Part shown: one piece after another, positions 6,884 through 47,496 of the stretch
Numbering within the stretch: position 1 is the first letter of the stretch
Layout: each line of letters opens with the position of its first letter
Source of the DNA: Bacteroidia bacterium
Lineage (GTDB): Bacteria; Bacteroidota; Bacteroidia; SpSt-205
Assembly (NCBI GenBank): GCA_025057135.1
Contig: JANWXY010000067.1
Span: forward strand, 12,867 to 76,866
DNA: 64,000 nt
Reading direction: 5' to 3'
The notes under the pieces: generated by a model
What the model saw: only the letters and a program-made list of their open reading frames with translations
Databases searched by the model: none
Told to the model about the DNA's origin: nothing
Position numbers and translations under genes: made by a program

Positions 6884-8629
6884 ATGCATCTATCAAAATC
6901 AGTGAATCCATATTACATTTGTCGCATGGCTTCATTTCTGGACTGGGCTCGCAGAATGATGACGAGCAATGCCTCCGATGTTGAAGTTCTACAATCACCC
7001 ATGCCTGTTTCCTTGATGAACATAATGGCGAACATGTATCCCGAGCCCGTAGCTGTACTTAATCGGGCTACGGATACCATAGTCTGGGGCAGTCCAGGGC
7101 TTATGATGCTTTCAGGCAGAGCTGGTGAAGAGCTTGTCAAAATGAAGCCGGAGGATTTTATACGAGCCCACTTTGCCTCCCCAGATGAGGTCATCGCGCT
7201 TTATGCTGAAAAGATAGCGGACGCCCAAATCAATAGCCGGTTTATTTCCCCCGAGGGAGAAAAATATGTACAAGCGCTCTGGATGCGTCTCCCCGAAGTT
7301 GAGAAAGGCGCAGACTATTTTCTACTCATGCTGCGCGACATCACCGAGATAGAGCTCATGAGGCAAGAGCTCCTGCAGTACAACGAAGAGCTTCAGCAGC
7401 AGATAGACATAGCAGACAGGCTATACCAGGAGCGGGAAAAGATGTACTTAGAGCTTCAGGAAAAGTCCGAATGGCTTCGTTTGATTAGTACCGCTACGGC
7501 ATATTCAAATACTATGAAGTTTATTTTGACACCCGAGGGTACGATTGTCTGGGTGAATCGGTTCTTTGAGCGAGCCTCTGGGTGGTCCGCCGCAGAACTC
7601 ATCGGTAAAAATGTACGCGATATCGGCGGAACATTCGCTCATCTACTTCCTTCACCACAAGCGGCGCCATCCGAAGATACGCTGATTATCAATCATTTTC
7701 ATAGAGCGCCATTTACCGAAGAGATTTTCGCCTATGACCGAAATGGCAATGGCTACTGGATGCTAATAACCTTAGCTCCGATACCAGATGAAGCCGGTAA
7801 CATCACCCACTACATAGGTGCTCTTATCAATATCCACCGTAAGAAGCAGCGAGAAGAAGAGCTCCGACTTTTCCGTCAGGAGATACAAGAATCCCTCAGC
7901 TATGCTGCGCGCATACAGCGTCGCTTTCTGTCTTCTCCGGAGATTTTGAAAGGGTATTTCTCGGATTATGCTGTGTGGCATAAACCCATGATAGATATCG
8001 GCGGAGACTTTTATTACTATGAAACGATAGAAGATGGCGCGGTGATAGCCATGGGAGATTGCACAGGACATGGGATACCCGCAGCTTTACTTAGTATTTA
8101 TGCCACCACATCTCTGCGCTTTGCACTGCAGCACTATGGTACCGACTTAGAGTCTGTATATCATCGACTCAAACAGGATATCAGAGAGGTATTTGCAAGA
8201 GATGGAAATATGGCTTATGAAGGCTTTGAAGTAGGCATACTCTACTATCAACCAAAGTCGGGAAAAGCCAAGTTTATAGGCGCGGGACGACCTTTATGGG
8301 TACTGCGGGGGGGGACACTCGTTCCTATGATGAGCGGGAAAGGTGACATCAGCGTAAGCCTTCCTGACGCCCCTACTCAGCATGAAGCTATCCTAATGAT
8401 ATTCTCTCTGAACAAAGGAGACCGCCTCTACCTTTTCTCTGATGGTATAACTGACCAGCTGAATAAAGAAAGTAAGAGATTTTCTACCAGTCGCTTACAA
8501 AAGCTTGTACGAGATAGCCATCCTCTGCCATTACAAACGCAGGTAGAGTTTCTGAAAAATTCCATCCAAGAATGGGCAAATGGCGCAGAGCAGACAGATG
8601 ACTTTCTCCTCATCGCCTTAGAGGTTTAG
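6884..8629 (+). CDS. PAS-domain sensor fused to a SpoIIE/RsbU-type PP2C serine phosphatase
   Basis: The N-terminal half has PAS-like segments separated by a coiled coil (ELMRQELLQYNEELQQQIDIADRLYQEREKMYLELQEK). The C-terminal domain carries PP2C/SpoIIE signatures (DIGGDFYYY...GDCTGHGIPAALLS...FSDGITDQ...TDDFLLIALEV). Confidence 0.8.
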   Translation: MHLSKSVNPYYICRMASFLDWARRMMTSNASDVEVLQSPMPVSLMNIMANMYPEPVAVLNRATDTIVWGSPGLMMLSGRAGEELVKMKPEDFIRAHFASPDEVIALYAEKIADAQINSRFISPEGEKYVQALWMRLPEVEKGADYFLLMLRDITEIELMRQELLQYNEELQQQIDIADRLYQEREKMYLELQEKSEWLRLISTATAYSNTMKFILTPEGTIVWVNRFFERASGWSAAELIGKNVRDIGGTFAHLLPSPQAAPSEDTLIINHFHRAPFTEEIFAYDRNGNGYWMLITLAPIPDEAGNITHYIGALINIHRKKQREEELRLFRQEIQESLSYAARIQRRFLSSPEILKGYFSDYAVWHKPMIDIGGDFYYYETIEDGAVIAMGDCTGHGIPAALLSIYATTSLRFALQHYGTDLESVYHRLKQDIREVFARDGNMAYEGFEVGILYYQPKSGKAKFIGAGRPLWVLRGGTLVPMMSGKGDISVSLPDAPTQHEAILMIFSLNKGDRLYLFSDGITDQLNKESKRFSTSRLQKLVRDSHPLPLQTQVEFLKNSIQEWANGAEQTDDFLLIALEV

Positions 8630-8644
8630 GAAAGCGTCTTAGAA

Positions 8645-9517
8645 CTACATCATCAGAGGGCTGAGTTCAGCGACGATAGCCATCATACCGAAAAAGACCG
8701 AAGCAAGGCCATTGTAGGTGAAAAAAGCTCTATTAATCTTGGACTTGTCTTGACTAACGAGGTGCTGATATAAAATAAACCCTGAAAATCCTCCCCAGCC
8801 TATCCAATAAAAAGCACTTGCAACCTTCCAGCCGTAGCGAGAGAATCCCACATATAGTAGAAGTATAATCGCCATAAAGTGACTAACCAAAGAGAGCCTA
8901 CGAGCCGTTTTTTCACCGAAAGTGGCTGGAATACTATACAAACCATTTTCTCTATCAAACTCCTCATCCTGCAGGGCATACAAAATATCAAATCCTCCCA
9001 CCCATAGGGCGACGGCAACCCCGACGAGCCAGATTATAGGGCTAAACTCTCCTTTCCCAGCCAAATAAGCCCCTACGGGCGCCAAGCCGAGCGCAATACC
9101 GAGCACATAGTGTGCCATGTATGTAAAGCGTTTCGTATAGGAATAGCCCAGCAGAATAAAAAGAGCCACGGGAGCTAAAATCGCACAGAGCGGGCTAAGG
9201 AGCCATGCCGCACCTATGAATATCCCCCCACTCCCTATCACCAAAAAGAGCGCCGCACGAGGGGCTATTTCTCCGCGAGGAATCTCTCGTTGAGCTGTGC
9301 GGGGATTACGAGCATCTATCGCCCTATCAACGTAGCGGTTGAAAGCCATCGCTGCCGTACGAGCACTTACGACAGCTACGACGACAAGCAGGAGCTTTAT
9401 GCCCCAGTTGGCAAAAGAGGTCTCCGTCACCGCCAGAGTGAAACCCCATAGAGCAAAAGGCAGCGCGAATACCGAGTGAGAGAGGACGACGAGGTTAGCG
9501 TACTTTTTGAGCGACAT
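8645..9517 (-). CDS. UbiA-superfamily aromatic prenyltransferase
   Basis: 290 aa and multi-TM. It carries the Asp-rich NRYVDRAIDARN motif (NxxxDxxxD) characteristic of UbiA/MenA prenyltransferases. Confidence 0.75.
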   Translation of the reverse strand: MSLKKYANLVVLSHSVFALPFALWGFTLAVTETSFANWGIKLLLVVVAVVSARTAAMAFNRYVDRAIDARNPRTAQREIPRGEIAPRAALFLVIGSGGIFIGAAWLLSPLCAILAPVALFILLGYSYTKRFTYMAHYVLGIALGLAPVGAYLAGKGEFSPIIWLVGVAVALWVGGFDILYALQDEEFDRENGLYSIPATFGEKTARRLSLVSHFMAIILLLYVGFSRYGWKVASAFYWIGWGGFSGFILYQHLVSQDKSKINRAFFTYNGLASVFFGMMAIVAELSPLMM

Positions 9518-9592
9518 GAAGCTGATTCTTATGGATGATAGCTGCCGCTGAGGACCGCCCCTGCCTCTGCGGGCTTAGGCAGCCTGCTGGGA

Positions 9593-10255
9593 TTAGTCAT
9601 CCCGCCAGTAATCGTAAATTTTCTCACGCTTGACCTGAGCTTTTTCCGATAAATAGCGCACAAGCCTATAAACAGCGATTGGGTCCAGTACCGGATAGGT
9701 AGGACGCAGAGTCCTTTCATAGTATAAGTCACGGTAGCGCTGCTGGGCTATCTTGATGCGCTCCTGTGGATCAGCGGGGAGGTTTTGCATGAAATAGGCG
9801 ATTAGCTCAGGACTTACATTGTCTCGAGCCGACTGCGTCTGCGTCTCTAAGGGAATATTGAGAAGGGCTGTACGCAGCTCTTCGGGCGTGCGGATGCTAT
9901 TGATGCGTACGGTAGGGAGCTCTATCGTATCCTCCACGAGGTAATGCACCGCATAAATCAATCCTTGGGTGGTATCGCCTGCGTAGGAGTTTAGATAAGC
10001 GCTCACGGCAAATCGCGCTCGTTTATATCCCAAAGCAGAAAATATCAGCGTATCGCCCCTAATCACAGGTAAGCTATAAAACCCGTCAGCGTTAGATATA
10101 CTGCCTCGGCGAGTTTTCCCCACTCGGATAGAAACATAGGGAATGGGCTCTCCAGTCGTAGCGCTCAGGATCATCCCAGAGAGCTGGTAGACAGTAGGCT
10201 CTGACTGGGCTAATAGCACGATAGGAATAAAAGTGAGCCAAAATGCTGGCTTCAT
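9593..10255 (-). CDS. Hypothetical secreted protein (carboxypeptidase-regulatory-like beta-sandwich region)
   Basis: It has an N-terminal signal peptide (MKPAFWLTFIPIVLLAQS). The segment YQLSGMILSATTGEPIPYVSIRVGKTRRGSISNADGFYSLPV resembles CarboxypepD_reg-like domains. Its start overlaps the stop of the upstream TPR-PP2C gene by 4 nt. Confidence 0.45.
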   Translation of the reverse strand: MKPAFWLTFIPIVLLAQSEPTVYQLSGMILSATTGEPIPYVSIRVGKTRRGSISNADGFYSLPVIRGDTLIFSALGYKRARFAVSAYLNSYAGDTTQGLIYAVHYLVEDTIELPTVRINSIRTPEELRTALLNIPLETQTQSARDNVSPELIAYFMQNLPADPQERIKIAQQRYRDLYYERTLRPTYPVLDPIAVYRLVRYLSEKAQVKREKIYDYWRDD

Positions 10256-12099
10256 ACCCGAACTGCCGCCAGCAGAACATCATCCGTAGGCGCTGCGCCC
10301 TCACGCCAGTTGTCAAACTCCTGCTGAATAGTAAATAGCCATTCAGAAAGGTCCTGAGGGGGATGTTTAGCTAAAAAGTCCCGAACAGCACTGCGTCCGT
10401 AACGCTTACCATCAGACGCACGAACCTGTCGCTCCCATCCATCCGTCATAAAAAGAAGCACCCAGCGCTTTTCTATAGGAATAATCGTACTCGTGTAGAG
10501 GCGTGGAGATTTTTCCCCTTCTATTTTTTGACCAATAAGGCGCTTATCAGGCATAAGCTGCTCCCAGCCAAGGAGTGGATTATATACCCAGAGCGGTATT
10601 TGGGCACCGGCATAATGTACCTCTCCGACATTTGGAAGCACTGTGCACACGCCTATCTGTAAGCCCTCCGATTGGATGGCTTCTATTTCAGCAGAGCTGG
10701 CTTTGGTGGGAGAATAAAGTAAATCCAGCAAGCCCTTGTGAAGTTGGCTGAGCACTTTTCCAGGGTCTGTAACCCCTCGCATCGTGATAATCTCGTAAAG
10801 AAGCGTATGTGCCACCGCAGACAACATCGCAGCGGAGACGCCCGCCCCTGACGCATCCGCTACTATAAATACGAGAGCCCCGTCTTTTCCTCTACTCGCC
10901 CAAAGAAAGTCTCCACTCACTAAGCTGCGTGGTAAAAGCCAATATATACTTTCTGGAAATACCTGCTTGAGCTCCATGCTCCCATGAAGGAGCGCCTCCT
11001 GAATACGACTGGCAACAACAATATCCGCCTGAGCCTCCTTCTGCATGCCGATAATATCCTCCCTGACTACTCTATCTATGGCCACAAGGGTATTCTTGGT
11101 AACTACACGCTGTAAAGCTATGTACCTCTTCGTGTATTCTTTGTGATACTTGTATGCATTTTCATAGTCCCCCACAAGCTCCGATAACTTAGCCCAGAGC
11201 TGCGGTAGAATATAATCCAAAGCTCCCTGCTTCACATAATCAATCAAGCTGTTGATTTTTTCTAAGTTTTCCCGGGCTTTATCCACTAAGTTTAGCTTCA
11301 GCTGGCAATCTGCCATAGCTACATAGATATTGGCTAAAAGGTGAGGGTTTTGGACGTTTGAGGCTAACTTTTCTGCGTTTTCTAAGGTTTGTATAGCTTG
11401 GTCTATAAGCTCGCGTTCTTTCAAAAGCTCTGCCTGTCCTGCGAGCACGCGTACGACGAGGTCTTCCTCCCCCAGGTCGGTAGCAATATCAAATGCTCGC
11501 TGGAGATGTGTTTCGGATTTCTCGTAGTCCTTGGTAGCTAAAAACAACTGCGCCAAAGTAATCATAGAAAAAAACTCCCCACGGATATTGCCACCCTGAC
11601 GATGAATCTCTAAGGCGCGCTGGTGATATTCCAGAGCTAAATCATATTGCTCGAGCTCGCCCATGAGCGAACCCAAGTTGGCCAGCGCCTGAGCATAATG
11701 CGCAGATAAGTCAGGAATGAACTGCAAGTAGCGTATAGAGCGTCCGTAATATTCTATGGAACGGTCAAGTTTGCCTATCTGGTGGTAAGCGGTGGCGAGA
11801 TTTGAGAGGACGAGCCCTAACCCCCGCATATCATCTAAACGCTCAAATAAAGCCAGAGCCTCCTGTAAATAAGCCTCTGCGGCATCAGGACGCCCAGAGA
11901 TAGCATAAGCAATCCCAATATTCCGAAGAGCCCAGGCTTTTCCGGAGTGGTATTTTATGGCTCGGGCTTTCTCAAAAGCATCCAGCGCTAAGCGCAGCGT
12001 GAGCTCGGTATTATTGTAGCGTTCATCATACGCTTGGGCATTCATCTGATTGATGACTTCACGCTGCCGCTCTATATCGGCTGTAAGAAACTCACTCAT
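10252..12099 (-). CDS. TPR-repeat protein fused to a SpoIIE/PP2C phosphatase domain
   Basis: The N-terminal roughly 330 aa consists of TPR-like repeats (e.g. ALRNIGIAYAISGRPDAAEAYLQEALALF). The C-terminal domain carries the PP2C/SpoIIE motifs SGDFLWAS...FIVADASGAGVSAAMLS...FMTDGW...TDDVLLAAVRV. Confidence 0.8.
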   Translation of the reverse strand: MSEFLTADIERQREVINQMNAQAYDERYNNTELTLRLALDAFEKARAIKYHSGKAWALRNIGIAYAISGRPDAAEAYLQEALALFERLDDMRGLGLVLSNLATAYHQIGKLDRSIEYYGRSIRYLQFIPDLSAHYAQALANLGSLMGELEQYDLALEYHQRALEIHRQGGNIRGEFFSMITLAQLFLATKDYEKSETHLQRAFDIATDLGEEDLVVRVLAGQAELLKERELIDQAIQTLENAEKLASNVQNPHLLANIYVAMADCQLKLNLVDKARENLEKINSLIDYVKQGALDYILPQLWAKLSELVGDYENAYKYHKEYTKRYIALQRVVTKNTLVAIDRVVREDIIGMQKEAQADIVVASRIQEALLHGSMELKQVFPESIYWLLPRSLVSGDFLWASRGKDGALVFIVADASGAGVSAAMLSAVAHTLLYEIITMRGVTDPGKVLSQLHKGLLDLLYSPTKASSAEIEAIQSEGLQIGVCTVLPNVGEVHYAGAQIPLWVYNPLLGWEQLMPDKRLIGQKIEGEKSPRLYTSTIIPIEKRWVLLFMTDGWERQVRASDGKRYGRSAVRDFLAKHPPQDLSEWLFTIQQEFDNWREGAAPTDDVLLAAVRV

Positions 12100-13346
12100 A
12101 GGGCGGTTTCAAGAGAAACATAATACCCGCGGCGCAATCTCTCAGCGATCAGACTGAATGTTTCTATGGTACGATCCACGTCCGCTTCTGTATGGGCTGC
12201 TGTGGGGATGAGACGAAGGATGATTTTCCCTCGCTCAATCACTGGATAGGTGACGACTGAACAGAATATGCCGAAGTTCTCCCGCAAGTCACGGACCAGG
12301 GCTATGGCTTCTCGCTCATTTCCAGAGAGATACACAGGAGTGACGGGCGACTCCGTAGGACCGATGTCCAATCCGGCTTTCCGCAGTCCTGACTGGAGGC
12401 GATGCGTGATTTGCCAGAGCTTCTGAAGGCGCTCTGGCTGAGAACGAATAAGCTGGAGCCGCTTACGGGCCCCTATGACGAGGGCTATCGGGAGAGATTT
12501 CGCATATATCTGGCTGCGTAGGTGATATCTCAGATATTGAACTATATCCTTTTCCCCTGCCACAAAAGCCCCTATTAGGGCCATACTTTTAGCGAAAGTA
12601 GCCAACCATACATCCACTGCCGCTTCAACACCGAAGTGCTCAGGCACTCCCCGCCCCGTGCGTCCCATGACACCGAAGCCATGCGCATCATCCACTAAGA
12701 GACGGAAGGGATACTTGGCTTTGAGGTCAGCTATTTTATCCAAAGCGCCCATATCGCCTCGCATACCAAAAACGCCCTCTGTAACTACCAAGATACCTCC
12801 GCCGGTTTTCTCTATATGCGCTACCGCCCGCTGGAGTCTTTCTTCCAGATGAGAAATGTCATTATGACGAAAGCTGAGGCGCAGCGCAGGAGTGAGCCGC
12901 ACCCCGTCAATCAAGCAGGCATGCGCAAGTTGGTCATAAATAACCACATCGTGCCTATCCAGAAGAGCATCTATGACCGACATGAATCCTTGGTAGCCGT
13001 AGTTGAGGAGAAAGACATCGGGCTTTCCTATGAAATCGGCAAGCTCTCGTTCTAAAGCCTCATGCTCATCAGTATTCCCCGTAAGCATGCGAGAGCCCAT
13101 AGGATAAGCGAATCCATACTCTGCGGCAGCCTGGGCATCTGCCTGACGCACCTCCGGATCATTTGCCAGGCCTAAATAATCGTTCAGCGACCAGACCAGC
13201 ACGGGACGACCTTGAAACTCCATGTGAGGCCCTATCGGACCTGTGAGTTTAGGAAATGCAAGATAATGGTGACCAATATCAGCATATTTACCTAAATCCT
13301 CGCCCATGCGGACGCGAACCTTTTCAAATAAATCCATACGCAGCAA
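12096..13346 (-). CDS. PLP-dependent alpha-oxoamine synthase family (BioF / Kbl / serine-palmitoyltransferase-like)
   Basis: 416 aa with class-II aminotransferase features. It carries the motifs LVDDAHGFGVMGRTGRG and the PLP-lysine region TFAKSMA. GSRMLTGNTDEHEALEREL resembles the GSRMLNG segment of bacterial serine palmitoyltransferases. The 3' end overlaps the start of the TPR-PP2C gene by ATGA-type coupling. Confidence 0.8.
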   Translation of the reverse strand: MLRMDLFEKVRVRMGEDLGKYADIGHHYLAFPKLTGPIGPHMEFQGRPVLVWSLNDYLGLANDPEVRQADAQAAAEYGFAYPMGSRMLTGNTDEHEALERELADFIGKPDVFLLNYGYQGFMSVIDALLDRHDVVIYDQLAHACLIDGVRLTPALRLSFRHNDISHLEERLQRAVAHIEKTGGGILVVTEGVFGMRGDMGALDKIADLKAKYPFRLLVDDAHGFGVMGRTGRGVPEHFGVEAAVDVWLATFAKSMALIGAFVAGEKDIVQYLRYHLRSQIYAKSLPIALVIGARKRLQLIRSQPERLQKLWQITHRLQSGLRKAGLDIGPTESPVTPVYLSGNEREAIALVRDLRENFGIFCSVVTYPVIERGKIILRLIPTAAHTEADVDRTIETFSLIAERLRRGYYVSLETAL

Positions 13347-17503: not shown

Positions 17504-20314
17504 TTGATATTTGTACTACCCATGCGAACTTCAATCTTCTTGATTAGCATTCTAATCGCCCAGACAAAAATTGACTACGCTGATAGCCTGCGTGAAAACG
17601 GCGATTATGAAGCGGCTTTCGCCATCTACGATTCTCTGAGGCGACAGACTAATATCCCGGATACCACCCTACTCTACCTATATCTCACAGGCGCAGAATG
17701 CCTGGCTAACCTTGAAAACCACCAGGAGGGGGAGAAGTGGATAGATGCAGGTATAAAAGTAGCCCAGCGTCTAAGAGATACTTTGGGATGGAGCACATTA
17801 CTATACTACCTCGCATGGATAAGAGATAGTCAGGGCAGGTTTATAGAGGCGGAAAGTCTTTACACACTCATCAAAGAATGGCAGGAAAACTTGGAAGGAG
17901 TTAGGAAAAACGCACTTTATACTCAGACTCTAAATAACTTAGGGCTCATAAAATCAACACTCGGTGATTACCGTGCAGCCGAAAATCTTTACCAGCAAGC
18001 CATCAGCATTCAGAAAGATATAGCAGGACCGGCAGATAGCGAATACCTAACAATGCTGGCAAACCTTGCCGTACTTTACTCTCAACAGGGACGCTATGGA
18101 ACCGCAGAAGCCATTTACAAGGAAATCATCCAAAGCATTGAGACACATTTCCATGCCAAGGGGAGAAAACATCCTGACTATCCAAAATTCCTGAGTAGCT
18201 TGGGAGAAGTCTATACTAATCAAGGAAGATATGCAGAGGCAGAGTCTCTCCTAAATCAGTCCGCGAGAATAAAAGCTCAACTATTCGGCACAGCCAATCT
18301 ATCTTATCTAATAACGCTGAACAACTTGGCTTCGCTATACTCTTTGCAAAATCGGTACCAAGAGGCCCTCACACTTTTCAAGGAAATAGCACAAATCATG
18401 TCGCAGATGGTAGGAGAAAGTGCTCCTTCTTATCTCGTCACACTCAATAATCTTACGATAGTTTATCAGAAGCTGAAACAGTACGAGGAAGCAGAAAAGC
18501 TCTATAAAATCACGCTGAGAAAGCTCGAGGAACGATTTGGCAAAAACCATTCAACTTATGCTATCAACTTAGGAGGTCTTGGCTCCTTGTACGAGGAGCA
18601 GGGACGCTATGATGAAGCAGAGCAAATCCTTACAGAATCTGCCCGGCTGATATCCGCCACTTTAGGCGAAAAGAACCAGTATTATGCCTTTACGCTTCAT
18701 CGCCTAGCGAGTGTATGGGGAAAAATGAAAAAATACGAGCAGGCAGACTCTTTGTGGAAGGCAGCCCTCAGGATTTTTTTCCAGTACTTACGCCAAGAGC
18801 TGAGTACTCTTCCAGCAGCTTACCAAGAACGCTTTTTGGAGACAAATCTCACAGGCAGGTTCAGAGATTTTCAGCAATATGTGGCGCTAAGAAGCAAACC
18901 GCCATCATCGCTTATTCTTCTCGGCTACCGTGTGGGGCGTAGTACTAAAGGGCTGATACTTACAGCCAGTGAAGGCCTACGCCATCTTGCCGAGTCCAGT
19001 CCTGATAGTAGCATACGCAGACTCTTTTTGCGCTGGCGAGAGCTCATGGCTCAGTATGCAGCGCTTGCTATGCAGGAGAGACACTCGGAGGCGGACTCAA
19101 TCCAGCGGCTTACTACCGAAGTAGAGCAGAGTCTACTATATCGTTTGCCTGAGATAAAAGCGTATTTCCCTGACCCCTTCTCTGAACCAGAACCCGAGTT
19201 GAGAAAAGACGAAGCTCTGATAGAAGTTATTCAGACTAAGGGGCAAAACAGCGTGCTTTACAACTTTTACCTCTTCTTACCTGAAAAGCGACGACATCGG
19301 TTACACTTGTATGTCCTCAGAGTAGATTCTGCATGGGAAAAGCGCGCGCAAAATGTTTATGAAATCTTGCGCTCACCAGAAGCGCAGCTTACCGCCTTGG
19401 CTTATCGTCTTCTTTGGAACTTCATAGATAGCCTCCTACCGAAAAGCGTGAAAAGAGTATATTTTTCGCCCGACGGTATTTATTATCGCATAAATGTAGG
19501 GACTCTTTACGATGGAAAAACATTTGTTGCGGATCGCTATGATGTTCGGCACGTGGCAAGTTCCCGACGATTAGTGCTCAAGCAGAGACAATTCCCATCT
19601 CAACCACCAGTAGTGATAGGTAATCCTGCTTTTGGTATTGCCCCGAGTGTCGGAGCTGGAACGGGAATGAGGGTTTACAGACTATTCCAAAGCGCCATAC
19701 CTCCCCTACCTGAGGCAGAGGCAGAAGCAGCCGTTGTGGCAAGGCTTTTAGGGGTTGAGCCTTTGATTGGCGAAGCAGCCACCGAAGAAAGAGTAAAGCT
19801 CCTCCGCAGCCCCAAAGTGCTACACATTGCGACCCACGGATACTTTCAGGAGGGTAGAGGCTCTCCGCTACTGAGAGCTGGACTTCTTCTCGCAGGTGCA
19901 GCAGTGTGGGATAGTCTATACCCTCCACTGGGTATAGAGGATGGACTCCTCACAGCTCGGGAAGTATCCAGCATGAACCTTTTAGGAACCGAGCTGGTAA
20001 CACTCTCTGCATGTGAGACGGGATTGGGAGACATCACCGGAGAGGGGCTATATGGACTGCAAAGAGCCTTTTTAGAGGCAGGAGCCAAGCGAGTGATCGC
20101 TACCTTATGGCCAATAGACGATGCAGCTACACGCGAAATCATGACTTCTTTTTATCAAAAATGGACCACGGCCCTAAAAAGCAATTCGTCTCCCACGAAG
20201 TACTCAGATAAGGGGGAAGAGATTATAGATCAAGCCTTTGCCGATGCTCTCAGAGATTTTCGTCGGCGATATAAATCACCCTATTATTGGGGAGCATTTA
20301 TTCTGATGCGATAA
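17504..20314 (+). CDS. TPR-repeat protein with C-terminal CHAT (caspase-like) protease domain
   Basis: 936 aa. It has a signal-peptide-like N-terminus (MRTSIFLISILIAQ) and about 10 TPR-like repeats (LNNLGLIKSTLGDYRAAENLYQQAISI..., repeated). The C-terminal domain carries the CHAT His (VLHIATHGYF) and Cys (LVTLSACETGLG) dyad. GC content is visibly lower than in flanking genes. Confidence 0.8.
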   Translation: MIFVLPMRTSIFLISILIAQTKIDYADSLRENGDYEAAFAIYDSLRRQTNIPDTTLLYLYLTGAECLANLENHQEGEKWIDAGIKVAQRLRDTLGWSTLLYYLAWIRDSQGRFIEAESLYTLIKEWQENLEGVRKNALYTQTLNNLGLIKSTLGDYRAAENLYQQAISIQKDIAGPADSEYLTMLANLAVLYSQQGRYGTAEAIYKEIIQSIETHFHAKGRKHPDYPKFLSSLGEVYTNQGRYAEAESLLNQSARIKAQLFGTANLSYLITLNNLASLYSLQNRYQEALTLFKEIAQIMSQMVGESAPSYLVTLNNLTIVYQKLKQYEEAEKLYKITLRKLEERFGKNHSTYAINLGGLGSLYEEQGRYDEAEQILTESARLISATLGEKNQYYAFTLHRLASVWGKMKKYEQADSLWKAALRIFFQYLRQELSTLPAAYQERFLETNLTGRFRDFQQYVALRSKPPSSLILLGYRVGRSTKGLILTASEGLRHLAESSPDSSIRRLFLRWRELMAQYAALAMQERHSEADSIQRLTTEVEQSLLYRLPEIKAYFPDPFSEPEPELRKDEALIEVIQTKGQNSVLYNFYLFLPEKRRHRLHLYVLRVDSAWEKRAQNVYEILRSPEAQLTALAYRLLWNFIDSLLPKSVKRVYFSPDGIYYRINVGTLYDGKTFVADRYDVRHVASSRRLVLKQRQFPSQPPVVIGNPAFGIAPSVGAGTGMRVYRLFQSAIPPLPEAEAEAAVVARLLGVEPLIGEAATEERVKLLRSPKVLHIATHGYFQEGRGSPLLRAGLLLAGAAVWDSLYPPLGIEDGLLTAREVSSMNLLGTELVTLSACETGLGDITGEGLYGLQRAFLEAGAKRVIATLWPIDDAATREIMTSFYQKWTTALKSNSSPTKYSDKGEEIIDQAFADALRDFRRRYKSPYYWGAFILMR

Positions 20315-20451
20315 AGAAGTGCAGGATACCGCGCTATCCCGACACATTACCTCTAATAAAGCTATACCCCCCTCTACCTGCGCTGAAAGCGGCTTCCGCC
20401 TTTTTCCCTGGCCGGCGACTTTACCTCGTTATTCAAACTACCTTTGCAAAT

Positions 20452-21888
20452 ATGCGGAAGGTTCTACCGCTCGTAGCGATAGGAATAATCTCGGGAATAG
20501 TAGCCGCTTCGGTAACAGTTGCCTTTTTTTACTCAAAGCGCTCTACCTCTTCAGATTCTCTCATGACAGCTCCCACTGTTATTGTTCCCATTCGGCCGCT
20601 CCGAATGGAAAGTGGCCCAGGAGACGCCAGCTTTGTACAAGCCGCTCAGAGAGCCACGCCTTCTGTGGTATTCATTCGAGCCTACGGGGAAAGGACTGCG
20701 GGAGATGATTTTTGGAGCTACTGGGGACTTTGGATGCCTCGCACCCACCAAGTCTATAGCGCGGGCTCAGGCGTCGTTTGGAGTGCAGATGGGTATATCG
20801 TAACCAATTACCACGTCGTAAGAGATGCCAATCGTATTCTCGTAACCTTTTCAGACAAACGCACACTGGAAGCCCAACTGGTCGGTGCAGATGCAGGCGT
20901 AGATATTGCTGTACTGAAAGTCAAAGCCTCTGCCCTCACCCCTCTACCATTAGCGAACTCCGACTCAATCCAAATAGGCGAATGGGTACTCGCCATAGGT
21001 AATCCCTACAATCTTACTTACACGGTCACAGCAGGGATCATCAGCGCACGCGGACGCAATCTCAATCTCCTGCAGGGGCCTTTACCCTTAGAGTCCTTTT
21101 TACAGACCGATGCAGCTATCAATCCAGGTAATAGTGGCGGCGCCTTAGTCAATCTCCGCGGTGAACTCGTAGGAATCAATACAGCCATCGCTTCTCGTAC
21201 AGGCTCATATGTAGGTTATGGCTTTGCAATCCCTATCAATATCGTTCGTAAGGCTGTTGAAGACCTAAAAGGACATGGCATCGTACAACGAGCTTTTCTG
21301 GATGCAGAGATAGTAGATTTAGCAGAGGACCGCATTGGTGATATTTCCCCAGAAGCTTTACAGGGGTTGTATATCGGACGAGTATATCCGGGCGGTGCAG
21401 CAGAGAAAGCTGGCTTGCGTTCAGGGGATATACTGATTGCCATAGATGGGGTAAATGTTCATACCCAAGCCGAATTCTTAGAGCGTCTCGCTCAGAAACG
21501 CCCCGGAGACAGAGTCAAAATCTTCTATCGCCGCAATGGCAAGCAGTACGAAACCACGGCCATTCTGACAAACGAAGACGGAGAGCCTACCCTTCTAAAG
21601 CGAGAAATATATCGGTCTGAAGCTCTGGGAGCGGACATTTCCCCTTTGAGCACAAGGGAATCACAACGCCTCGGTATCAGTCAGGGCTATCGCATTCAAA
21701 ACTTACGCAGTGGAATTTTCAGCCAAATGGGACTACCAGAAGGTTTTATTTTACTGAAAATCAACGGCTACACTCCCCAGTCGCCCAGAGAAGTAGAGGA
21801 GATACTTCAAAAAATACGCGGACGACTGACCATAGAAGGCATAGATGCGCAGGGGCGTCGGTTATATCTGAATTTTAGCATGCGGTGA
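20452..21888 (+). CDS. HtrA/DegP-family periplasmic serine protease with two PDZ domains
   Basis: It has a trypsin-like catalytic triad (His in TNYHVV, Asp in DIAVLK, Ser in GNSGGALVN), an N-terminal TM anchor (VLPLVAIGIISGIVAASVTVAFF) and two PDZ-like regions. The track ORF starts at 20287 inside the CHAT gene. The ATG at 20452 (MRKVLPL...) is more plausible. Confidence 0.85.
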   Translation: MRKVLPLVAIGIISGIVAASVTVAFFYSKRSTSSDSLMTAPTVIVPIRPLRMESGPGDASFVQAAQRATPSVVFIRAYGERTAGDDFWSYWGLWMPRTHQVYSAGSGVVWSADGYIVTNYHVVRDANRILVTFSDKRTLEAQLVGADAGVDIAVLKVKASALTPLPLANSDSIQIGEWVLAIGNPYNLTYTVTAGIISARGRNLNLLQGPLPLESFLQTDAAINPGNSGGALVNLRGELVGINTAIASRTGSYVGYGFAIPINIVRKAVEDLKGHGIVQRAFLDAEIVDLAEDRIGDISPEALQGLYIGRVYPGGAAEKAGLRSGDILIAIDGVNVHTQAEFLERLAQKRPGDRVKIFYRRNGKQYETTAILTNEDGEPTLLKREIYRSEALGADISPLSTRESQRLGISQGYRIQNLRSGIFSQMGLPEGFILLKINGYTPQSPREVEEILQKIRGRLTIEGIDAQGRRLYLNFSMR

Positions 21889-23168
21889 TATTGCCCGAAG
21901 CTTTTGTTGTGCGGATGCGCGCTCGGCTTCAAGAGGAAGCGGAGCCTTTCTTTCATGCGCTTCAAGCCCCTCCAAATGTGACCATTCGCCTCAATCCCTA
22001 TAAAGGGAAAAATCTATTCCCAGAAGCGCGGTGCGTGCCCTGGCATCCCCTCGGCCGAGTACTCCATCAGCGCCCAGATTTTGAGCATTCCCCCCTTTGG
22101 CATGCGGGCGCTTACTATGTCCAAGAAGCCTCCGGTATGAGCTTGAGAAACTTCCTGCCCGAGCGTCGCCCTCTGCGAGTGCTTGACCTGAGCGCAGCAC
22201 CAGGCGGGAAATCCACCCTCATCCTGGGAGAACTCGGCCTTGAAGGCGGTTTGCTCATCGCCAATGACCCTGACCCTAAGCGGCGAGCAGCCCTGCGCGA
22301 AAACTTGGAGCGGTGGGGCATTCCCTCCTACTTCATCACGGGACGCCACCCCCAGTATTGGGCTCAGCGTTATCCAGAAGCATTTGATGTGGTAGTTTTA
22401 GATGCTCCCTGTTCAGGAGAAGGGCTATGGCGTAAGGATGACCGGGCAATTTGTCAGTGGAGCCCCCAAGGAGTGAAGCGTATGCAGCGTTTCCAACGAA
22501 GTTTGCTATTCGCAGCAAAAGCCCTTGTGGCCCCTGGGGGAAGGCTGATTTACTCTACCTGCACTTTCGCCCCCGAAGAGAACGAGGACAATCTCGCCTT
22601 CGCCTTCGCCAATGATGCCTCATGGCATCCCGTATTTTGGGAAACTGCCCCTCCTGAGGTTATCCGCGTGCGATATGCTGGGGAAGGCATTGGCTACTAT
22701 TTCTACCCGCATCGCTGTATAGGGGAGGGGTTTTTTATTTCTGCTTGGGGAAAAGAAGGTCGTCCAGCTCTGTACTCTAAACCCTACAAAACTGTCAGCT
22801 CCCCTTTTCTTCTACCCAAAAACATCCGAGCCATCAAAAGGGGAGAACAGTTCTACGCTTTGACGGAAAGTGCGATAGCCTGCTCCCTTCCAGATTGGGA
22901 TAAAGAGATTTGGGAGGCCTTTCCTATATGGGAGCATGCCCGTCCTACCCATGCAGCTGCACTTCTGGCAGCCGTAGAATATCCCAACTTTCCCGAACGG
23001 CCGCTATCTACCGAAGAGTTTATGCATTATCTCGCTGGGCGCCATTTCAATCCACAGGCTGCGCTTGAGTGGGTTACTGTATCAGGATTAGGAGTTGGCT
23101 GGCTGTATAAAGGGCGACCCTCTCTACCTTTCACTTGGCGGCGATTCCTCCGCCACTATCAGCCCTGA
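21885..23168 (+). CDS. NOL1/NOP2/Sun-family RNA cytosine-C5 methyltransferase (RsmB/RsmF-like)
   Basis: The SAM-binding motif is VLDLSAAPGGKST. The catalytic region is DAPCSGEG...YSTCT. The start overlaps the DegP stop (ATGA-type). Confidence 0.75.
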   Translation: MILPEAFVVRMRARLQEEAEPFFHALQAPPNVTIRLNPYKGKNLFPEARCVPWHPLGRVLHQRPDFEHSPLWHAGAYYVQEASGMSLRNFLPERRPLRVLDLSAAPGGKSTLILGELGLEGGLLIANDPDPKRRAALRENLERWGIPSYFITGRHPQYWAQRYPEAFDVVVLDAPCSGEGLWRKDDRAICQWSPQGVKRMQRFQRSLLFAAKALVAPGGRLIYSTCTFAPEENEDNLAFAFANDASWHPVFWETAPPEVIRVRYAGEGIGYYFYPHRCIGEGFFISAWGKEGRPALYSKPYKTVSSPFLLPKNIRAIKRGEQFYALTESAIACSLPDWDKEIWEAFPIWEHARPTHAAALLAAVEYPNFPERPLSTEEFMHYLAGRHFNPQAALEWVTVSGLGVGWLYKGRPSLPFTWRRFLRHYQP

Positions 23169-23579
23169 GTAGTAGTCGTGCCTATATTCTATCCGTTCAA
23201 ATCCTGCCTCCCGCAGCGCATCAACTATGTATTTCAGGTCATCCATCTCCTCTTCTTCCCCCAGATAAATCACAATCTGCATTTGAGGAACCCGCTCTAT
23301 CAGCGCCCAAAGCAGCTCATACAGCTCACGCTGAGCGGAAGAGTTGATATAGGACAGCTCAATATGAACCTCCATCTCATCTCGGAGCAGCTCTGAATTC
23401 TGCCGAACAAAAGAGCGCAGAGGCTGGAAAAAAACCGAGCTATTCTCTGGAAAGCAGGCACCTTTCAAAAATATAATGCACTTATCGAGGTCTGCTCCAA
23501 CTTCAGGTGTATATTGGCTCGCTGGAATATGCAGCTTCACTTCAGACAAAAATACTAACTCCTCCGTACAAACGCTCAT
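23124..23579 (-). CDS. DUF1987 / SiaC-like partner-switch phosphoprotein (orphan)
   Basis: 151 aa. The segments LHIPASQYTPEV...FLKGACFPENSSVFFQPL and IELSYINSSAQRELYELL line up with conserved positions of Pseudomonas SiaC (LHIPGTQSTPAI...GDSYPENSYELFGQV; LRLLYLNTSSIKAMMDIL). It is convergent with, and overlaps, the rsmB-like 3' end. Confidence 0.6.
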   Translation of the reverse strand: MSVCTEELVFLSEVKLHIPASQYTPEVGADLDKCIIFLKGACFPENSSVFFQPLRSFVRQNSELLRDEMEVHIELSYINSSAQRELYELLWALIERVPQMQIVIYLGEEEEMDDLKYIVDALREAGFERIEYRHDYYSGLIVAEESPPSER

Positions 23580-24166: not shown

Positions 24167-24426
24167 TGATGAAGCGTTGGCTGATAGCATGCCTTCTTCT
24201 GCCTCTGCTGAGCTGGGCACAATGTGCAATGTGCAGAAAAAACGCCGAAAACTCCTCTCCTGGTTTAGCCAAGGGGTTACGGGTTGGGATTATTTTTCTT
24301 TTCGCCGTACCGTACGTCGTAGCTGGAACGGTTGGCTGGTTGTGGTACAAACGCATGCGTGAGAGTGGACGGCTGGGGTCTGGTAGTAGAGACAGCGAGC
24401 GCGAGCCTTCAACTGGGGCTGCTTAA
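24162..24426 (+). CDS. Hypothetical small membrane-anchored protein with CxxC motif
   Basis: The MMMKRW start overlaps the DUF420 stop (ATGA). It has a signal peptide (LIACLLLPLLSWAQ), then CAMC, then a TM helix (LRVGIIFLFAVPYVVAGTVGWLWY). It overlaps the probable tsaB start, so it may be spurious. Confidence 0.3.
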
Positions 24427-36260: not shown

Positions 36261-36396
36261 ACCTGCAAAGGTAGCTGCGGGATTTAGTACTGAAAGCTAA
36301 ACTCCAGTCCCCCCAAACATACTTAGCGGAGGAATGCAAGATTCCATCTCGTAACCCGCACATCCGGAAGTCGTGTGGCCTTGACTTTCTGAGCAC

Positions 36397-36425
36397 TTGC
36401 AGATGTGGGATTATTTGTACATTTG
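36397..36425 (+). promoter_or_regulatory. Candidate Bacteroidota-type sigma-A promoter for tRNA-Gln
   Basis: TTG at 36397-36399 is followed after 18 nt by TAcaTTTG (36418-36425). The latter matches the TAnnTTTG -7 consensus. It ends 8 nt upstream of the tRNA 5' end. Confidence 0.3.
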
Positions 36426-36433
36426 TAGTCGCC

Positions 36434-36504
36434 TGCCCGGTCGTCTAACGGTAGGACAGCAGATTTTGGGTCTGCGTGTGGGGGTTCGAATCCTCCCCGG
36501 GCAA
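36434..36504 (+). tRNA. tRNA-Gln (anticodon TTG)
   Basis: The acceptor stem tgcccgg/ccgggca pairs. The anticodon stem gcaga/tctgc encloses the loop ttTTGgg. The T-arm is ggggTTCGAATCctcc. Length 71 nt, no encoded CCA. Confidence 0.8.
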
Positions 36505-37486: not shown

Positions 37487-38386
37487 ATGATAACTCTGTT
37501 CGCTTGTCCCAAACCATTTACCGAACCTCGTATAGCCGAAGTTCAAAGAAAAGCCATCCAGAGTTGGCTTCTTCTGAAAAAAGTATCGGAAATAATCCTT
37601 ATCGGGGACGATGAGTTAGTCGCAGAGGTCGCAGCGGAATATAATCTCAAACATATACCGTATTTAGAAAAAACTGCACACGGAAGCCCCATGGTTAGTG
37701 ATCTATTTTACAAAGCGAAAAATGCCGCAATAAGCGACATTCTAATGTATGTCAACTCAGACATACTCCTCACGAATAAGGTTATTGATGCAGTAGATAT
37801 AGTCAAGCAAGCCTTCAACAAATACCTCATTATTATATCTCCTTACCTGACTGATATAAATGGTCTGACCATTCAAGAGGGATATGAAAACAGAGCTTTT
37901 GAGCACATCGTCAATCAACCTATACCGACAGGCGCAGATGTATTTATTTTTCCCAAGACCATTTACGATGAAATTCCTCCTTTCGGCTTAGGAAGGTGTT
38001 TCTGGGATTTTTGGCTCATTTCAGACCCTCTTCTGAAAGGAATACCGGTCATAGATGCCACTGACTTCGCACCCACCTTCCATCCTGTGGATGAAAGTAG
38101 TACCCACTATGTAGAATACACTCAAAGAGAGGCCCCAGTACTTGCCGAAAAGTCTATCTCCGCACGATCTCAGGCATTTAATATGCAAATGAATATAAAC
38201 TTTACACTGACAGACTCCGCGCACCTCCTTCGTCGGCACGATGTCCCCTACAAGCTCTCATCAGAAGGACAAATCATACAACAAAAATCCATGTGGCGTA
38301 TACGGATGAAACAAAAGATAGGGCTTTGGATGGATAAAACCGCCCCTATACGCAGAAGAATCGGATTATATCGCTGGTGGAAATGA
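37487..38386 (+). CDS. Uncharacterised protein, paralog A of a tandem pair (possible GT-A-like transferase)
   Basis: 299 aa with no TM or signal peptide. About 40% of positions are identical to the downstream ORF. Shared motifs are FTEPR[IF]A[ED][VI]Q.KAI[QK]SW, YVN[SA]DI, GAD[VI]F, WD.W and KGIP.IDAT[DE][FY]A.T[FL]HP[VI]DE[ST]STH. GC is about 40-45%. Confidence 0.6.
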   Translation: MITLFACPKPFTEPRIAEVQRKAIQSWLLLKKVSEIILIGDDELVAEVAAEYNLKHIPYLEKTAHGSPMVSDLFYKAKNAAISDILMYVNSDILLTNKVIDAVDIVKQAFNKYLIIISPYLTDINGLTIQEGYENRAFEHIVNQPIPTGADVFIFPKTIYDEIPPFGLGRCFWDFWLISDPLLKGIPVIDATDFAPTFHPVDESSTHYVEYTQREAPVLAEKSISARSQAFNMQMNINFTLTDSAHLLRRHDVPYKLSSEGQIIQQKSMWRIRMKQKIGLWMDKTAPIRRRIGLYRWWK

Positions 38387-38387
38387 T

Positions 38388-39329
38388 ATGATAACGATAG
38401 CCTCTTGGCCGAAGAGATTCACGGAGCCCCGCTTTGCGGACATCCAAACTAAAGCCATCAAGAGCTGGCAAATGCTTTCGCCTGATGTAGAAATCATTTT
38501 AGTGGGTAAAGATGAAGGTGTCGCCGAAGTCTGCGCTCAAATGGGGCTGAAGCACCTACCAAACGTAAGAGCAAATGAAAGAGGAACGATATATCTGGAC
38601 GATCTCCTCTATCAAATTTCACTGCATGCAAGGCATAACATCGTGGCGTATGTAAATGCGGATATTATTGTATTGCCAGCCCTTGCTCGTGCTGTATCGG
38701 AGGTTTCCAAAAAGTGGAAGCGTTTCCTCCTCGTTTCAGCCCCTCATATAGCAGATTTTACTGCTATTCAGGTAGAGCCTGGCTTTGAGAAAAATGCCCT
38801 CAAACATATTGTCCAACAGCCGACCCCATACGGAGCTGATATTTTTGTCCATACAAAAGGATTGTATAAAAAGGTAAAGCCTTTTCTGGTTGGTCGACAG
38901 ATATGGGACTCATGGATGATGGCTTACCCTGCGGGAAAGGGGATACCCTGTATAGATGCCACAGAATATGCCATAACCCTTCATCCAATAGATGAAACCA
39001 GTACCCATGCATATGTACATTTACAAGAGGGAAAGAAACGGGAAGAAAGCTGGCGCAAGGCTAATGATCCTCTCAAGGTTCAAGAATATGAATACAATGA
39101 GAGCATGGTAACCTCATGGTGGTTCATGCACCTACATAGAACGAAGTTACCTTATGAGATTAAGCCTGATGGAAATATCTCAGAAAGAAACTTATCTGAC
39201 AAAGACATTGATATTATAAGAAAGATAAGGTCAGAAGATAGGAAATCATTTATAAAAAGCCTGCTAAAACGAGTCGGATTATACAATAAAGTGTACGATC
39301 TATACAGAATTATCAAACGGAACTACTGA
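38388..39329 (+). CDS. Uncharacterised protein, paralog B of a tandem pair (possible GT-A-like transferase)
   Basis: 313 aa. It starts 2 nt after the paralog A stop. It shares the same conserved motifs as paralog A. The C-terminal tail is Lys/Arg-rich. GC is low. Confidence 0.6.
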   Translation: MITIASWPKRFTEPRFADIQTKAIKSWQMLSPDVEIILVGKDEGVAEVCAQMGLKHLPNVRANERGTIYLDDLLYQISLHARHNIVAYVNADIIVLPALARAVSEVSKKWKRFLLVSAPHIADFTAIQVEPGFEKNALKHIVQQPTPYGADIFVHTKGLYKKVKPFLVGRQIWDSWMMAYPAGKGIPCIDATEYAITLHPIDETSTHAYVHLQEGKKREESWRKANDPLKVQEYEYNESMVTSWWFMHLHRTKLPYEIKPDGNISERNLSDKDIDIIRKIRSEDRKSFIKSLLKRVGLYNKVYDLYRIIKRNY

Positions 39330-40867: not shown

Positions 40868-41803
40868 TTATCTGCTTAGACTATTTTCTTTGTGAAGCTG
40901 AACTATCTGAGAAAGCTTCTTAGGATGGGCTCGCCTGAGTGCGCTGCGGTGCTGGTGCTTTCTGATTTGGGCTTGGGATAGGGTCGTCCACTGCTCATGA
41001 GAAAAAAAAGCCGCCTTTTTGGGACGAAAGGCTAACTCTCCTTGAGGACGAGCAAATCTATTCCAAGGACACACCTGCTGGCAAATATCACATCCAAAAA
41101 TCCATCCATGGAGGTCGGGCATACCTTCATCTAAATCGGGAGCTTCTATCGTCCAGTATGCGATACAGCGCCGTGCGTCTATCACATATGGCTCCAAAGC
41201 CCGCGTTGGACATGCTTCTACACAGCGATTACATGTCCCGCATAAATCCTCCGTAAATGGTTCATCTGGCAAAAGAGCTGCCGAGGTAAGAACACCTCCA
41301 ATGAATGTGTAGCTGCCCAAACGGCGATGGAGTACCAGCGTATTTTTTCCTATCCAGCCTAAACCAGCCATCACAGCCCAAGCCTTTTCCAAAATCGGAG
41401 CTGTATCTACGAATAGACGAGCATCGTATCCATGGCGGATAAGGTAGTCCGCTATGATTTGGAGACGGCGCCGAAGGTGAATGTGATAATCTTCTCCCCA
41501 GGCATACTGGGCGATAGGTGATACGGGACGCTTAGTGTGAAAATAGCTCTGGAGTACAAGTAGCATGCTTCGTGCTCCTGGAAGAACTGATGAAGGGTCT
41601 GCACGCAGCAATGCCCCTTTATCCAGGTAGGACATACCTGCATGCTTACCTGCCGCAAGCCACGAGAGAAACCGCCTATATGCCTGAGATAAAAGAGGAG
41701 GCGCATCTGAGGCATCCATTCGTACGACAGAGGCAATCCCGCAAGCGTCGAATCCAAGCCCCTCTGCGAGAGATTTGACCGCCTGAGTAAGAGATAAGCT
41801 CAT
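40868..41803 (-). CDS. queG: Epoxyqueuosine reductase
   Basis: It has two 4Fe-4S ferredoxin-type motifs (CGTCNRCVEACP, CDICQQVCP) and a QueG-like N-terminal domain. The C-terminal tail is HEAT-like. Confidence 0.8.
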   Translation of the reverse strand: MSLSLTQAVKSLAEGLGFDACGIASVVRMDASDAPPLLSQAYRRFLSWLAAGKHAGMSYLDKGALLRADPSSVLPGARSMLLVLQSYFHTKRPVSPIAQYAWGEDYHIHLRRRLQIIADYLIRHGYDARLFVDTAPILEKAWAVMAGLGWIGKNTLVLHRRLGSYTFIGGVLTSAALLPDEPFTEDLCGTCNRCVEACPTRALEPYVIDARRCIAYWTIEAPDLDEGMPDLHGWIFGCDICQQVCPWNRFARPQGELAFRPKKAAFFSHEQWTTLSQAQIRKHQHRSALRRAHPKKLSQIVQLHKENSLSR

Positions 41804-43207: not shown

Positions 43208-43537
43208 GATTAACAGGCATGAGCTTCGTCAGCCCTAAAAGATCCAGGATGTTGTATACCTCAGGGGTTACATCTTTTAGCTCCAGAGAAATGCCTTTCG
43301 GAGCGAGATTATCAATAGACATGAGCAGGATGCCAGCGCCAGCACTTGAAAGGTAAGTTAGACCGCGGCAGTTTAGGATGATTTTACGGGTATTAGGATG
43401 TTCCTGAAGTAGGCGATTTAGATTTTCGTAAAGCTTAGGAGCAGTGAGAGCATCTAACTCGCCCGTGAGAGCTACTTGAAGGTTAGTATCCGTAGTACCC
43501 GAAAGGACTTCTACCTGCATGTAGCAAAGATACGAGC

Positions 43538-43541: not shown

Positions 43542-47496
<3,955 letters not shown>

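Follow-up and report, generated by a model that had tools for sequence, protein, structure and literature searches.

Three SpoIIE-type phosphatases in a 64 kb stretch of a Bacteroidia genome: probably one partner-switching module and three orphan signaling genes rather than a network

Introduction

When several SpoIIE/RsbU-type PP2C phosphatases are encoded close to a STAS antagonist and an RsbW-like kinase, do they form a single signaling network or are they merely neighbors on the chromosome? The question is raised by a 64,000-nucleotide (64 kb) stretch of DNA from a Bacteroidia bacterium (assembly GCA_025057135.1, contig JANWXY010000067.1), referred to in full as the window, which encodes three such phosphatases, one with a PAS domain (PAS-PP2C), one with TPR domains (TPR-PP2C) and one with a membrane domain (membrane PP2C), together with a STAS antagonist, an RsbW-like kinase and a SiaC-like (DUF1987) protein. 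An earlier reading of the sequence, hereafter the original prediction, had proposed a partner-switching network with a non-sigma output, in which all three phosphatases, each with its own type of input, act on the one STAS/kinase pair and perhaps also on the SiaC-like protein. Our analysis indicates instead that the window probably contains one three-component partner-switching module and three unrelated orphan signaling genes, and that their co-location is a genus-level accident of gene order and not a functional cluster.

Bacterial genomes commonly hold 3 to 46 SpoIIE-like phosphatases, few of which are linked to kinase genes (PMC2887360). Multiple and mostly kinase-unlinked SpoIIE-type phosphatases per genome have also been documented elsewhere, and the need for such enzymes to tell related substrates apart is under active study (PMC11418112).

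Results and Discussion

A Probable Partner-Switching Module in a Housekeeping Gene Chain

Only one of the three phosphatases is linked to the STAS and kinase genes. The gene for the membrane sensor phosphatase (43538-45535, minus strand; Pfam SpoIIE, PF07228, at residues 473-663, E = 2.5e-34, 119.3 bits against a cut-off of 25) lies head to tail with those for a STAS antagonist of 106 residues (43200-43520, minus strand; STAS PF01740, 5e-16, 58.9 bits against 22.6) and an RsbW/SpoIIAB-class GHKL serine kinase (42776-43207, minus strand; HATPase_c_2 PF13581, 4e-22, 78.9 bits against 27.4). The three belong to a six-gene minus-strand chain in the order guaB, PP2C, STAS, kinase, ruvB and queG. 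The first gene, guaB (inosine monophosphate dehydrogenase; 45532-46995, minus strand), overlaps the start of the PP2C gene by 4 nucleotides, while downstream ruvB (41800-42792, minus strand) overlaps the kinase gene by 17 nucleotides and the last gene, queG (40868-41803, minus strand), overlaps ruvB by 4. Within the module the PP2C stop codon is 18 nucleotides from the STAS ATG at 43520, and the STAS and kinase genes overlap by 8 nucleotides. Terminator-like hairpins inside the chain are not above the shuffled expectation and this, together with the overlaps, makes co-transcription plausible; hence the module genes are probably co-transcribed and translationally coupled within a chain of housekeeping genes.

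The arrangement is widely kept. A survey of linkage, in which one genome per species was scanned, returned 16 related loci, and the complete order from guaB to queG is found in 14 of them, down to a PP2C identity of ~44%. The STAS gene likewise adjoins the kinase gene in 14 of the 16. Neither in the window nor in these 14 loci, 15 module-bearing loci in total, is there a sigma gene beside the module, and the gene downstream is ruvB in each case.

The Other Phosphatases and the SiaC-Like Gene Have Their Own Contexts

The TPR-PP2C phosphatase (10252-12099, minus strand; TPR_12 and other TPR domains, SpoIIE at residues 406-615, 3e-15, 57.2 bits against 25) is encoded by the middle gene of a different chain. 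Upstream of it, with a 4-nucleotide overlap, is the gene for an aminotransferase of the alpha-oxoamine-synthase family (SPT/BioF/Kbl-like; 12096-13346, minus strand; Pfam Aminotran_1_2), and downstream, again overlapping by 4 nucleotides, is that for a CarboxypepD_reg-like protein (9593-10255, minus strand; Pfam CarbopepD_reg_2). The overlapping chain of three genes (9593-13346) is kept in three further genomes at 51-60% identity and usually lies downstream of hisF-hisIE-DUF3127, and the TPR-PP2C family as a whole comprises ~35 orthologs at 51-100% identity. In NCBIfam the aminotransferase comes closest to SPT (308 bits) and BioF (302 bits), although it stays below the cut-offs of both and of all other equivalogs. 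The company that it keeps suggests that the TPR-PP2C protein may have a part in the envelope or in a pathway of acyl-amino-acid or sphingolipid-like type.

The PAS-PP2C phosphatase (6884-8629, plus strand; PAS_9 at residues 213-317, 5e-15; SpoIIE at residues 385-581, 6e-25, 88.7 bits against 25) is encoded by a stand-alone gene, and the only ortholog found, at 58% identity, has different neighbors. The gene for the SiaC/DUF1987-like protein (23124-23579, minus strand; Pfam SiaC PF09345, 3e-14, 53.2 bits against 24.5) is indeed solitary, as first described, and the gene caller makes its product 138 residues long. Its relatives are few and, at 49-63% identity, are likewise flanked by DUF420 and rsmF; no kinase or phosphatase gene is found nearby in either the window or the relatives.

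Relatives also show the genes of the window far apart. In KatS3mg025 the TPR-PP2C gene is at ~1.577 Mb and the membrane PP2C gene at ~0.821 Mb of one 2.27 Mb contig (BPGV01000001.1), a distance of ~756 kb, and in KatS3mg026 the two are on different contigs. This separation, with the grouping kept only in the closest relative, identifies the grouping as genus-level gene order and not as a conserved cluster.

How Far Does the Window Support a Single Network?

The components had been described correctly. All six genes were recovered with the domains assigned to them, each above its Pfam gathering cut-off, and the window does contain a single STAS gene, a single RsbW-like kinase gene and no sigma gene. 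Its 57 open reading frames (ORFs) cover 96% of the 64 kb, leaving gaps of more than 150 bp only at 1-559, 911-1523, 24167-24331, 36261-36475, 55148-55425 and 63092-64000, which are either too short for a sigma gene or at the ends of the window, and Pfam found no sigma70 region domain in any of the 57. Nor did Pfam find further STAS, HATPase_c_2, SpoIIE, SiaC or GGDEF domains in the ~50 other ORFs of at least 100 residues, and no match to the SiaB family was found in the window with NCBIfam. A local scan with hidden Markov models of 420 kb, made up of the window and related loci, gave no extra STAS, kinase or PP2C gene beyond those targeted, although its profiles were narrow and the flanks mostly redundant, such that it says little about the density of paralogs.

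Convergence of all three phosphatases on the STAS/kinase pair has several points in its favor. All three PP2C domains look catalytically competent (see below), the window holds only one STAS and one kinase gene, and metagenome-assembled genomes (MAGs) of uncultured Bacteroidia yielded all three phosphatase families, together with the SiaC-like family as far as it was visible to the word search. Input from more than one phosphatase is familiar from RsbU and RsbP of Bacillus subtilis. It is also known from Chlamydia (PMC4552016). What tells against convergence is that no genetic linkage extends beyond the membrane PP2C, that the TPR-PP2C and SiaC-like genes have conserved contexts of their own while the one PAS-PP2C ortholog has other neighbors, and that the co-location is lost in relatives, where the TPR-PP2C and membrane PP2C genes can be separated by most of a megabase. 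The premise of a single pair and of a missing sigma factor, moreover, concerns 64 kb only; the window matches a 235 kb contig of a Bacteroidia MAG (GCA_033583795.1), and the whole genome runs to several megabases. The specificity of PP2C enzymes for STAS partners is also normally tight (PMC11418112). Hence we regard convergence as quite unlikely.

Three observations nevertheless weigh against reading the window as one module and three orphans. The first is that linkage within the module is not absolute: two of the 16 related loci (L012 and L015, from MAGs SKYB87 and DT_Bin_56) keep guaB followed by the membrane PP2C gene, yet the STAS and kinase genes do not come next. At ~9900-13200 of these loci Fer4/guaB and the membrane PP2C gene are followed by an ORF of 426 residues on the opposite strand, with no STAS, kinase, ruvB or queG gene within 10 kb of the phosphatase gene, a gene order that indicates a rearrangement breakpoint directly after it. 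The second is that a single contig of 92 kb from the closest relative (GCA_039630325.1) carries the module together with the TPR-PP2C and SiaC-like genes, and thus the grouping is shared at least at the level of the genus. The third is that the orphan phosphatases might yet work on the STAS/kinase pair, should it truly be the only one in the genome. Even so, one module accompanied by three unrelated signaling genes is the reading that we favor, and the co-occurrence of domains within one window should not be taken as a network.

Three Apparently Competent PP2C Domains

The original prediction had singled out the metal-binding Asp residues of the PP2C domains as the place where pseudo-phosphatases would be recognized. 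When the three domains are aligned with the SiaA PP2C domain (6k4e), all four Asp motifs (GDxY/F, DxxGxG, (S/T)DG and DD) are present in each. They read GGD375FY, GD392CTGHG, SD520G and TD572D573 in PAS-PP2C; the corresponding residues are D397, D415, D553, D606 and D607 in TPR-PP2C, invariant in 18 orthologs, and D459, D478, D602, D654 and D655 in the membrane PP2C, invariant in 17. In addition, conservation within the membrane PP2C and TPR-PP2C ortholog families is in each case highest in the PP2C region. The His of the second motif (GHG) is replaced in two of the proteins, by GAG in TPR-PP2C and GSG in the membrane PP2C, which might be thought to mark pseudo-phosphatase scaffolds of the kind represented by Chlamydia CT589. 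This His is variable in active enzymes of the SpoIIE/RsbU type, and given the retention of all four Asp motifs and their invariance across orthologs, we consider it highly improbable that any of the three is a scaffold of this kind. Accepting the favored reading, PAS-PP2C and TPR-PP2C are predicted, from their sequences, to be separate and catalytically competent cytoplasmic sensor phosphatases.

The input region of PAS-PP2C consists of the PAS domain and what appears, from reading the sequence only, to be a coiled coil. The best PDB matches of the PAS domain (7520-7834, plus strand) are LOV domains, including those of YtvA, phototropin and LOV histidine kinases. A photoactive LOV input was considered and set aside, since the adduct motif GxNCRFLQ reads GKNVRDIGG in this protein and the missing Cys makes a flavin-Cys photocycle unlikely.

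The Membrane Phosphatase and Its Sensor Domain

A full-length AlphaFold2 model of the membrane PP2C (mean predicted local distance difference test score, pLDDT, of 85.6) divides it into an eight-helix membrane domain (residues 2-250), an alpha/beta module (257-385), a long linker helix (386-431) and the SpoIIE-type PP2C domain (443-663). The alpha/beta module may be described as GAF-like on the basis of its predicted secondary structure. Modeled alone, residues 1-256 (44768-45535, minus strand) again form a bundle of eight helices (pLDDT 91.5, predicted template modeling score 0.88), with loops of 1-5 residues on one side and Arg/Lys-rich loops on the other. Such short outer and positively charged inner loops fit a topology of eight transmembrane helices in which both termini and the PP2C domain are cytoplasmic. 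The protein had been described as a 7TM-PP2C, and while the assignment as a SpoIIE phosphatase with a membrane domain is borne out, the helix count has to be revised, hydropathy alone giving seven to eight helices and the model eight.

The membrane domain has no Pfam match and no significant fold match in the PDB (best E 0.23, TM ~0.21), and from its model we regard it as an unclassified intramembrane sensor. The PP2C domain, by comparison, has clear structural relatives in Foldseek, the best being the SiaA PP2C domain (6k4e, TMt 0.81), followed by RsbX (0.81) and 3pu9 (0.77), with SpoIIE, RssB and Rv1364c also found. There are ~34 full-length orthologs at 43-100% identity, all from uncultured Bacteroidia MAGs, and the next matches after these are unrelated HAMP-SpoIIE proteins that resemble it in the PP2C domain only. 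The sensor domain, confidently modeled, lacking a Pfam family and a PDB fold match and limited to these ~34 orthologs, is the most unusual part of the module and may be of interest to specialists.

The STAS Antagonist and the Kinase

The STAS gene was first given as 43200-43541. The gene itself is confirmed, although its start is not: position 43541 is a TTG to which a mechanical ORF of 113 residues extends, and both the gene caller and the alignment of orthologs make the ATG at 43520 the most likely start. The protein exceeds the NCBIfam cut-off for the anti-sigma-factor-antagonist superfamily (TIGR00377; 69 bits against 53.45) and falls below that for the SpoIIAA equivalog (45.7 bits against 114.75). 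Its best PDB match is SpoIIAA (1th8_B), with which, as with 1auz_A and 6m36_B, the phosphorylated Ser aligns to S66 (in the numbering of the 113-residue ORF). This is the position of S58 in SpoIIAA and of S56 in RsbV, and the surrounding Y(L/I)SSAGAGILL motif is invariant in all 15 of the orthologs.

The spacer between the PP2C stop codon and the STAS ATG (43521-43537, minus strand) is open in the STAS frame and encodes a conserved (Y/S)LC(Y/F/S/H) in most orthologs. This suggests conservation of the junction at the nucleotide level, possibly for translational coupling, or an alternative start upstream.

The kinase carries an N-box EELCANSILHGN, the G1 Asp D80 and a G2 box PGGFGIYL, all invariant in its orthologs, the invariant residues being E44/E45, N49, H53, D80 and G105/G106/G108. 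The family profile matches RsbW (6m36, 1e-8) and SpoIIAB (2e-7) in the PDB, and not SiaB, and the best NCBIfam matches are RsbW, RsbA and SpoIIAB. The scores are far below the equivalog cut-offs (models TIGR01925 and NF003144; RsbW, 35.4 against 145; SpoIIAB, 34.8 against 135), and more generally none of the proteins of the window reaches the NCBIfam equivalog cut-offs for SiaA, SiaC, RsbW, SpoIIAB or SpoIIAA. A search of 1.84 billion representative sequences with the single kinase sequence gave 1642 matches at E<=1e-3 but only 23 at E<=1e-10. The best match is 40% identical, and by this measure the kinase appears rather isolated in sequence space. The G1 box, DPAPPYD, was at one point considered unusual. 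This was dropped, as the form A-P-P-(F/Y)-D is seen repeatedly in the 40 nearest relatives and just a single Gly is present at this point in B. subtilis RsbW.

Proposed Mechanism and Possible Outputs

We propose that the module operates as an ordinary partner switch. On the model of RsbU/RsbV/RsbW and SpoIIE/SpoIIAA/SpoIIAB, to which its proteins are homologous, the kinase would phosphorylate S66 of the STAS protein, and as long as the STAS protein is phosphorylated the kinase would be free to hold its target. A signal at the membrane or envelope would act through the intramembrane or GAF-like sensor to activate the PP2C domain, which would take the phosphate off the STAS protein. The unphosphorylated STAS protein would then capture the kinase and the target would be released. 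We infer that the target, which is not encoded beside the module, would be a non-sigma protein or else a sigma factor from another part of the genome.

That the kinase sequesters a sigma factor encoded elsewhere, either an alternative one or the primary one, as has been proposed for Chlamydia RsbW and sigma-66, is a real possibility although not the one on which we would settle. The only PDB relatives of the kinase profile are RsbW and SpoIIAB, both of them anti-sigma factors, these two and RsbA lead its NCBIfam matches, and the STAS protein passes the cut-off of the anti-sigma-factor-antagonist superfamily. Counting against such an output are the lack of a sigma gene next to the module, here and at 14 related loci alike, and a kinase score of 35 bits where the equivalog cut-offs are 135-145. 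Moreover, Bacteroidota are not known to carry group 3 sigma factors of the sigma-B/sigma-F type. Their promoters, to our knowledge, differ from the sigma-70-type consensus, which makes a sigma-70-type promoter scan uninformative here. Precedents are available on both sides, in that Chlamydia has such a system without sigma-B (PMC4552016) and many STAS/kinase switches have non-sigma outputs (PMC8256260, PMC8457831). The module, whose place between guaB and ruvB/queG is the same in 14 of 16 relatives and which has no output gene nearby, could be used to explore the targets of RsbW-class kinases in a phylum for which sigma-B-type factors are not known.

The SiaC-like protein raises the prospect of a second branch. 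In P. aeruginosa the SiaABCD system connects a DUF1987 protein to a diguanylate cyclase, and the N67/T68/S69 motif of SiaC is the site both of phosphorylation and of SiaD binding (PMC8457831). The protein from the window matches SiaC in the PDB (6kko, 4e-5), N67/T68/S69 aligning with N79/S80/S81 (Thr to Ser), and its YINSSAQRE segment is invariant in five orthologs. In a SiaABC-like branch, PAS-PP2C, TPR-PP2C or both would dephosphorylate this protein, the opposing kinase would be the RsbW-like enzyme or an unlinked SiaB-like one, and the unphosphorylated form would activate an unlinked effector. Along with the invariant N-S-S and the STAS-like structure of DUF1987 (PMC8457831), this is favored by the two cytoplasmic phosphatases being closer than the membrane PP2C to SiaA, both to its PP2C domain (6k4e; 72 bits for PAS, 51 for TPR and 32 for membrane) and to the NCBIfam SiaA model (NF038263; 91, 81 and 25 bits, the cut-off being 700), which makes the solitary SiaC-like protein a candidate substrate for them. 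The lead is a weak one, given that SiaA is the only close SpoIIE-type PP2C of the subfamily in the PDB and hence that being closest to SiaA means little. Both the SiaA and SiaC scores are far below the equivalog cut-offs (44 bits against 150 in the case of SiaC, NF038265), and in neither the window nor the relatives is there a SiaB-family kinase, a GGDEF/SiaD protein or a PP2C gene adjacent to the SiaC-like gene. Thus such a branch is unlikely.

These elements can be combined into a more elaborate scheme, whereby a thermophile-associated lineage of Bacteroidia would have a switch with an eight-helix sensor hard-wired into the guaB-ruvB-queG operon, and its one RsbW-class kinase would both control a primary sigma factor or a non-sigma target and serve the SiaC-like protein, which PAS-PP2C and TPR-PP2C would dephosphorylate. 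With two antagonist branches and three inputs sharing one kinase, this is a speculative picture that we consider very unlikely to be correct in full.

Comparison With Known Partner-Switching Systems

A partner-switching network with non-sigma outputs had been presented as a theme still poorly described outside Firmicutes and Pseudomonas. This is overstated, since such systems have been described in Chlamydia (PMC4552016) and STAS switches with non-sigma outputs in Vibrio, Bordetella, Rhodobacter and Nostoc have been reviewed (PMC8256260), with a further one from Anabaena described recently (PMC13555669). A literature search for partner switching in Bacteroidota gave nothing specific. The module is an ordinary partner switch, a known kind of signaling system and not a new network.

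The Rsb network of Chlamydia is the closest described system in overall logic. It comprises three PP2C-like proteins (the membrane protein RsbU and two others, one of which is a pseudo-phosphatase), two RsbV proteins and one RsbW, there is no sigma-B, and sigma-66 is the reported target (PMC4552016). The C. trachomatis proteins (RsbU, CT589 and CT259; RsbV1 and RsbV2; RsbW) and those of the window have in common a membrane SpoIIE-type PP2C, further PP2Cs, a single RsbW-type kinase, one or more STAS antagonists, the absence of a sigma-B-type factor (here from the window) and an output that is not encoded beside the module. They differ in their sensory parts, Chlamydia RsbU combining a periplasmic sensor with a HAMP linker and the membrane PP2C an eight-helix intramembrane domain, whose outer loops are very short, with a GAF-like module, and in that Chlamydia has two RsbV paralogs and a pseudo-phosphatase, whereas the window has one STAS gene and Asp motifs in all three PP2Cs.

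With the B. subtilis switches (RsbU/RsbP-RsbV-RsbW and SpoIIE-SpoIIAA-SpoIIAB) the module shares the same three families and the same phospho-Ser position, and SpoIIE is likewise a polytopic membrane PP2C. In contrast to them, the operon contains no sigma gene and places the module between guaB and ruvB, the sensor domain has no relation to theirs and the kinase falls far below the equivalog cut-offs. The resemblance to SiaABCD of P. aeruginosa lies in the PP2C domains, which are most similar to that of SiaA (6k4e) in sequence and, as judged from the membrane PP2C model, in fold, and in a DUF1987/SiaC protein with an N-(T/S)-S motif. Unlike in P. aeruginosa (PMC8457831; 10.1101/674879), a siaABCD operon is lacking, with the SiaC-like gene standing alone, and the window has neither a SiaB kinase nor a GGDEF cyclase. 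Finally, a PP2C/STAS/kinase set without a linked sigma output is shared with SypE/SypA of Vibrio, BtrU/V/W of Bordetella, RbaV/W of Rhodobacter, HmpU/V/W of Nostoc and HenR of Anabaena (PMC8256260, PMC13555669), although the loci of these systems hint at their outputs (syp, type III secretion, hmp and hep) while the housekeeping neighbors here give no hint. If the window does hold one module and three orphans, it adds a Bacteroidia example to a long list of PP2C/STAS/kinase partner switches, and neither the sensor domain nor the fixed position of the module changes the current understanding of partner switching.

Other Genes in the Window

Some further genes in the window are of note. ORFs of 908, 477, 299, 313 and 162 residues, at 56186-58912 (plus strand), 60040-61473 (minus strand), 37487-39329 (plus strand) and 47426-47914 (plus strand), have no Pfam match at E<=1e-3, and that of 162 residues has no NCBIfam match either. 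A Sua5/TsaC-type threonylcarbamoyl-AMP synthase (51367-52722, minus strand; Sua5_yciO_yrdC and Sua5_C), which the gene caller also makes 451 residues long, matches DUF488 near its C-terminus, over the first 50 positions of that family. At 17504-21888 (plus strand) the gene for a TPR-CHAT (caspase-like) protein of 936 residues is followed by an overlapping gene for an HtrA-like trypsin-PDZ protease, and a close relative (L021) has a shorter CHAT gene in the same slot as the TPR-CHAT gene.

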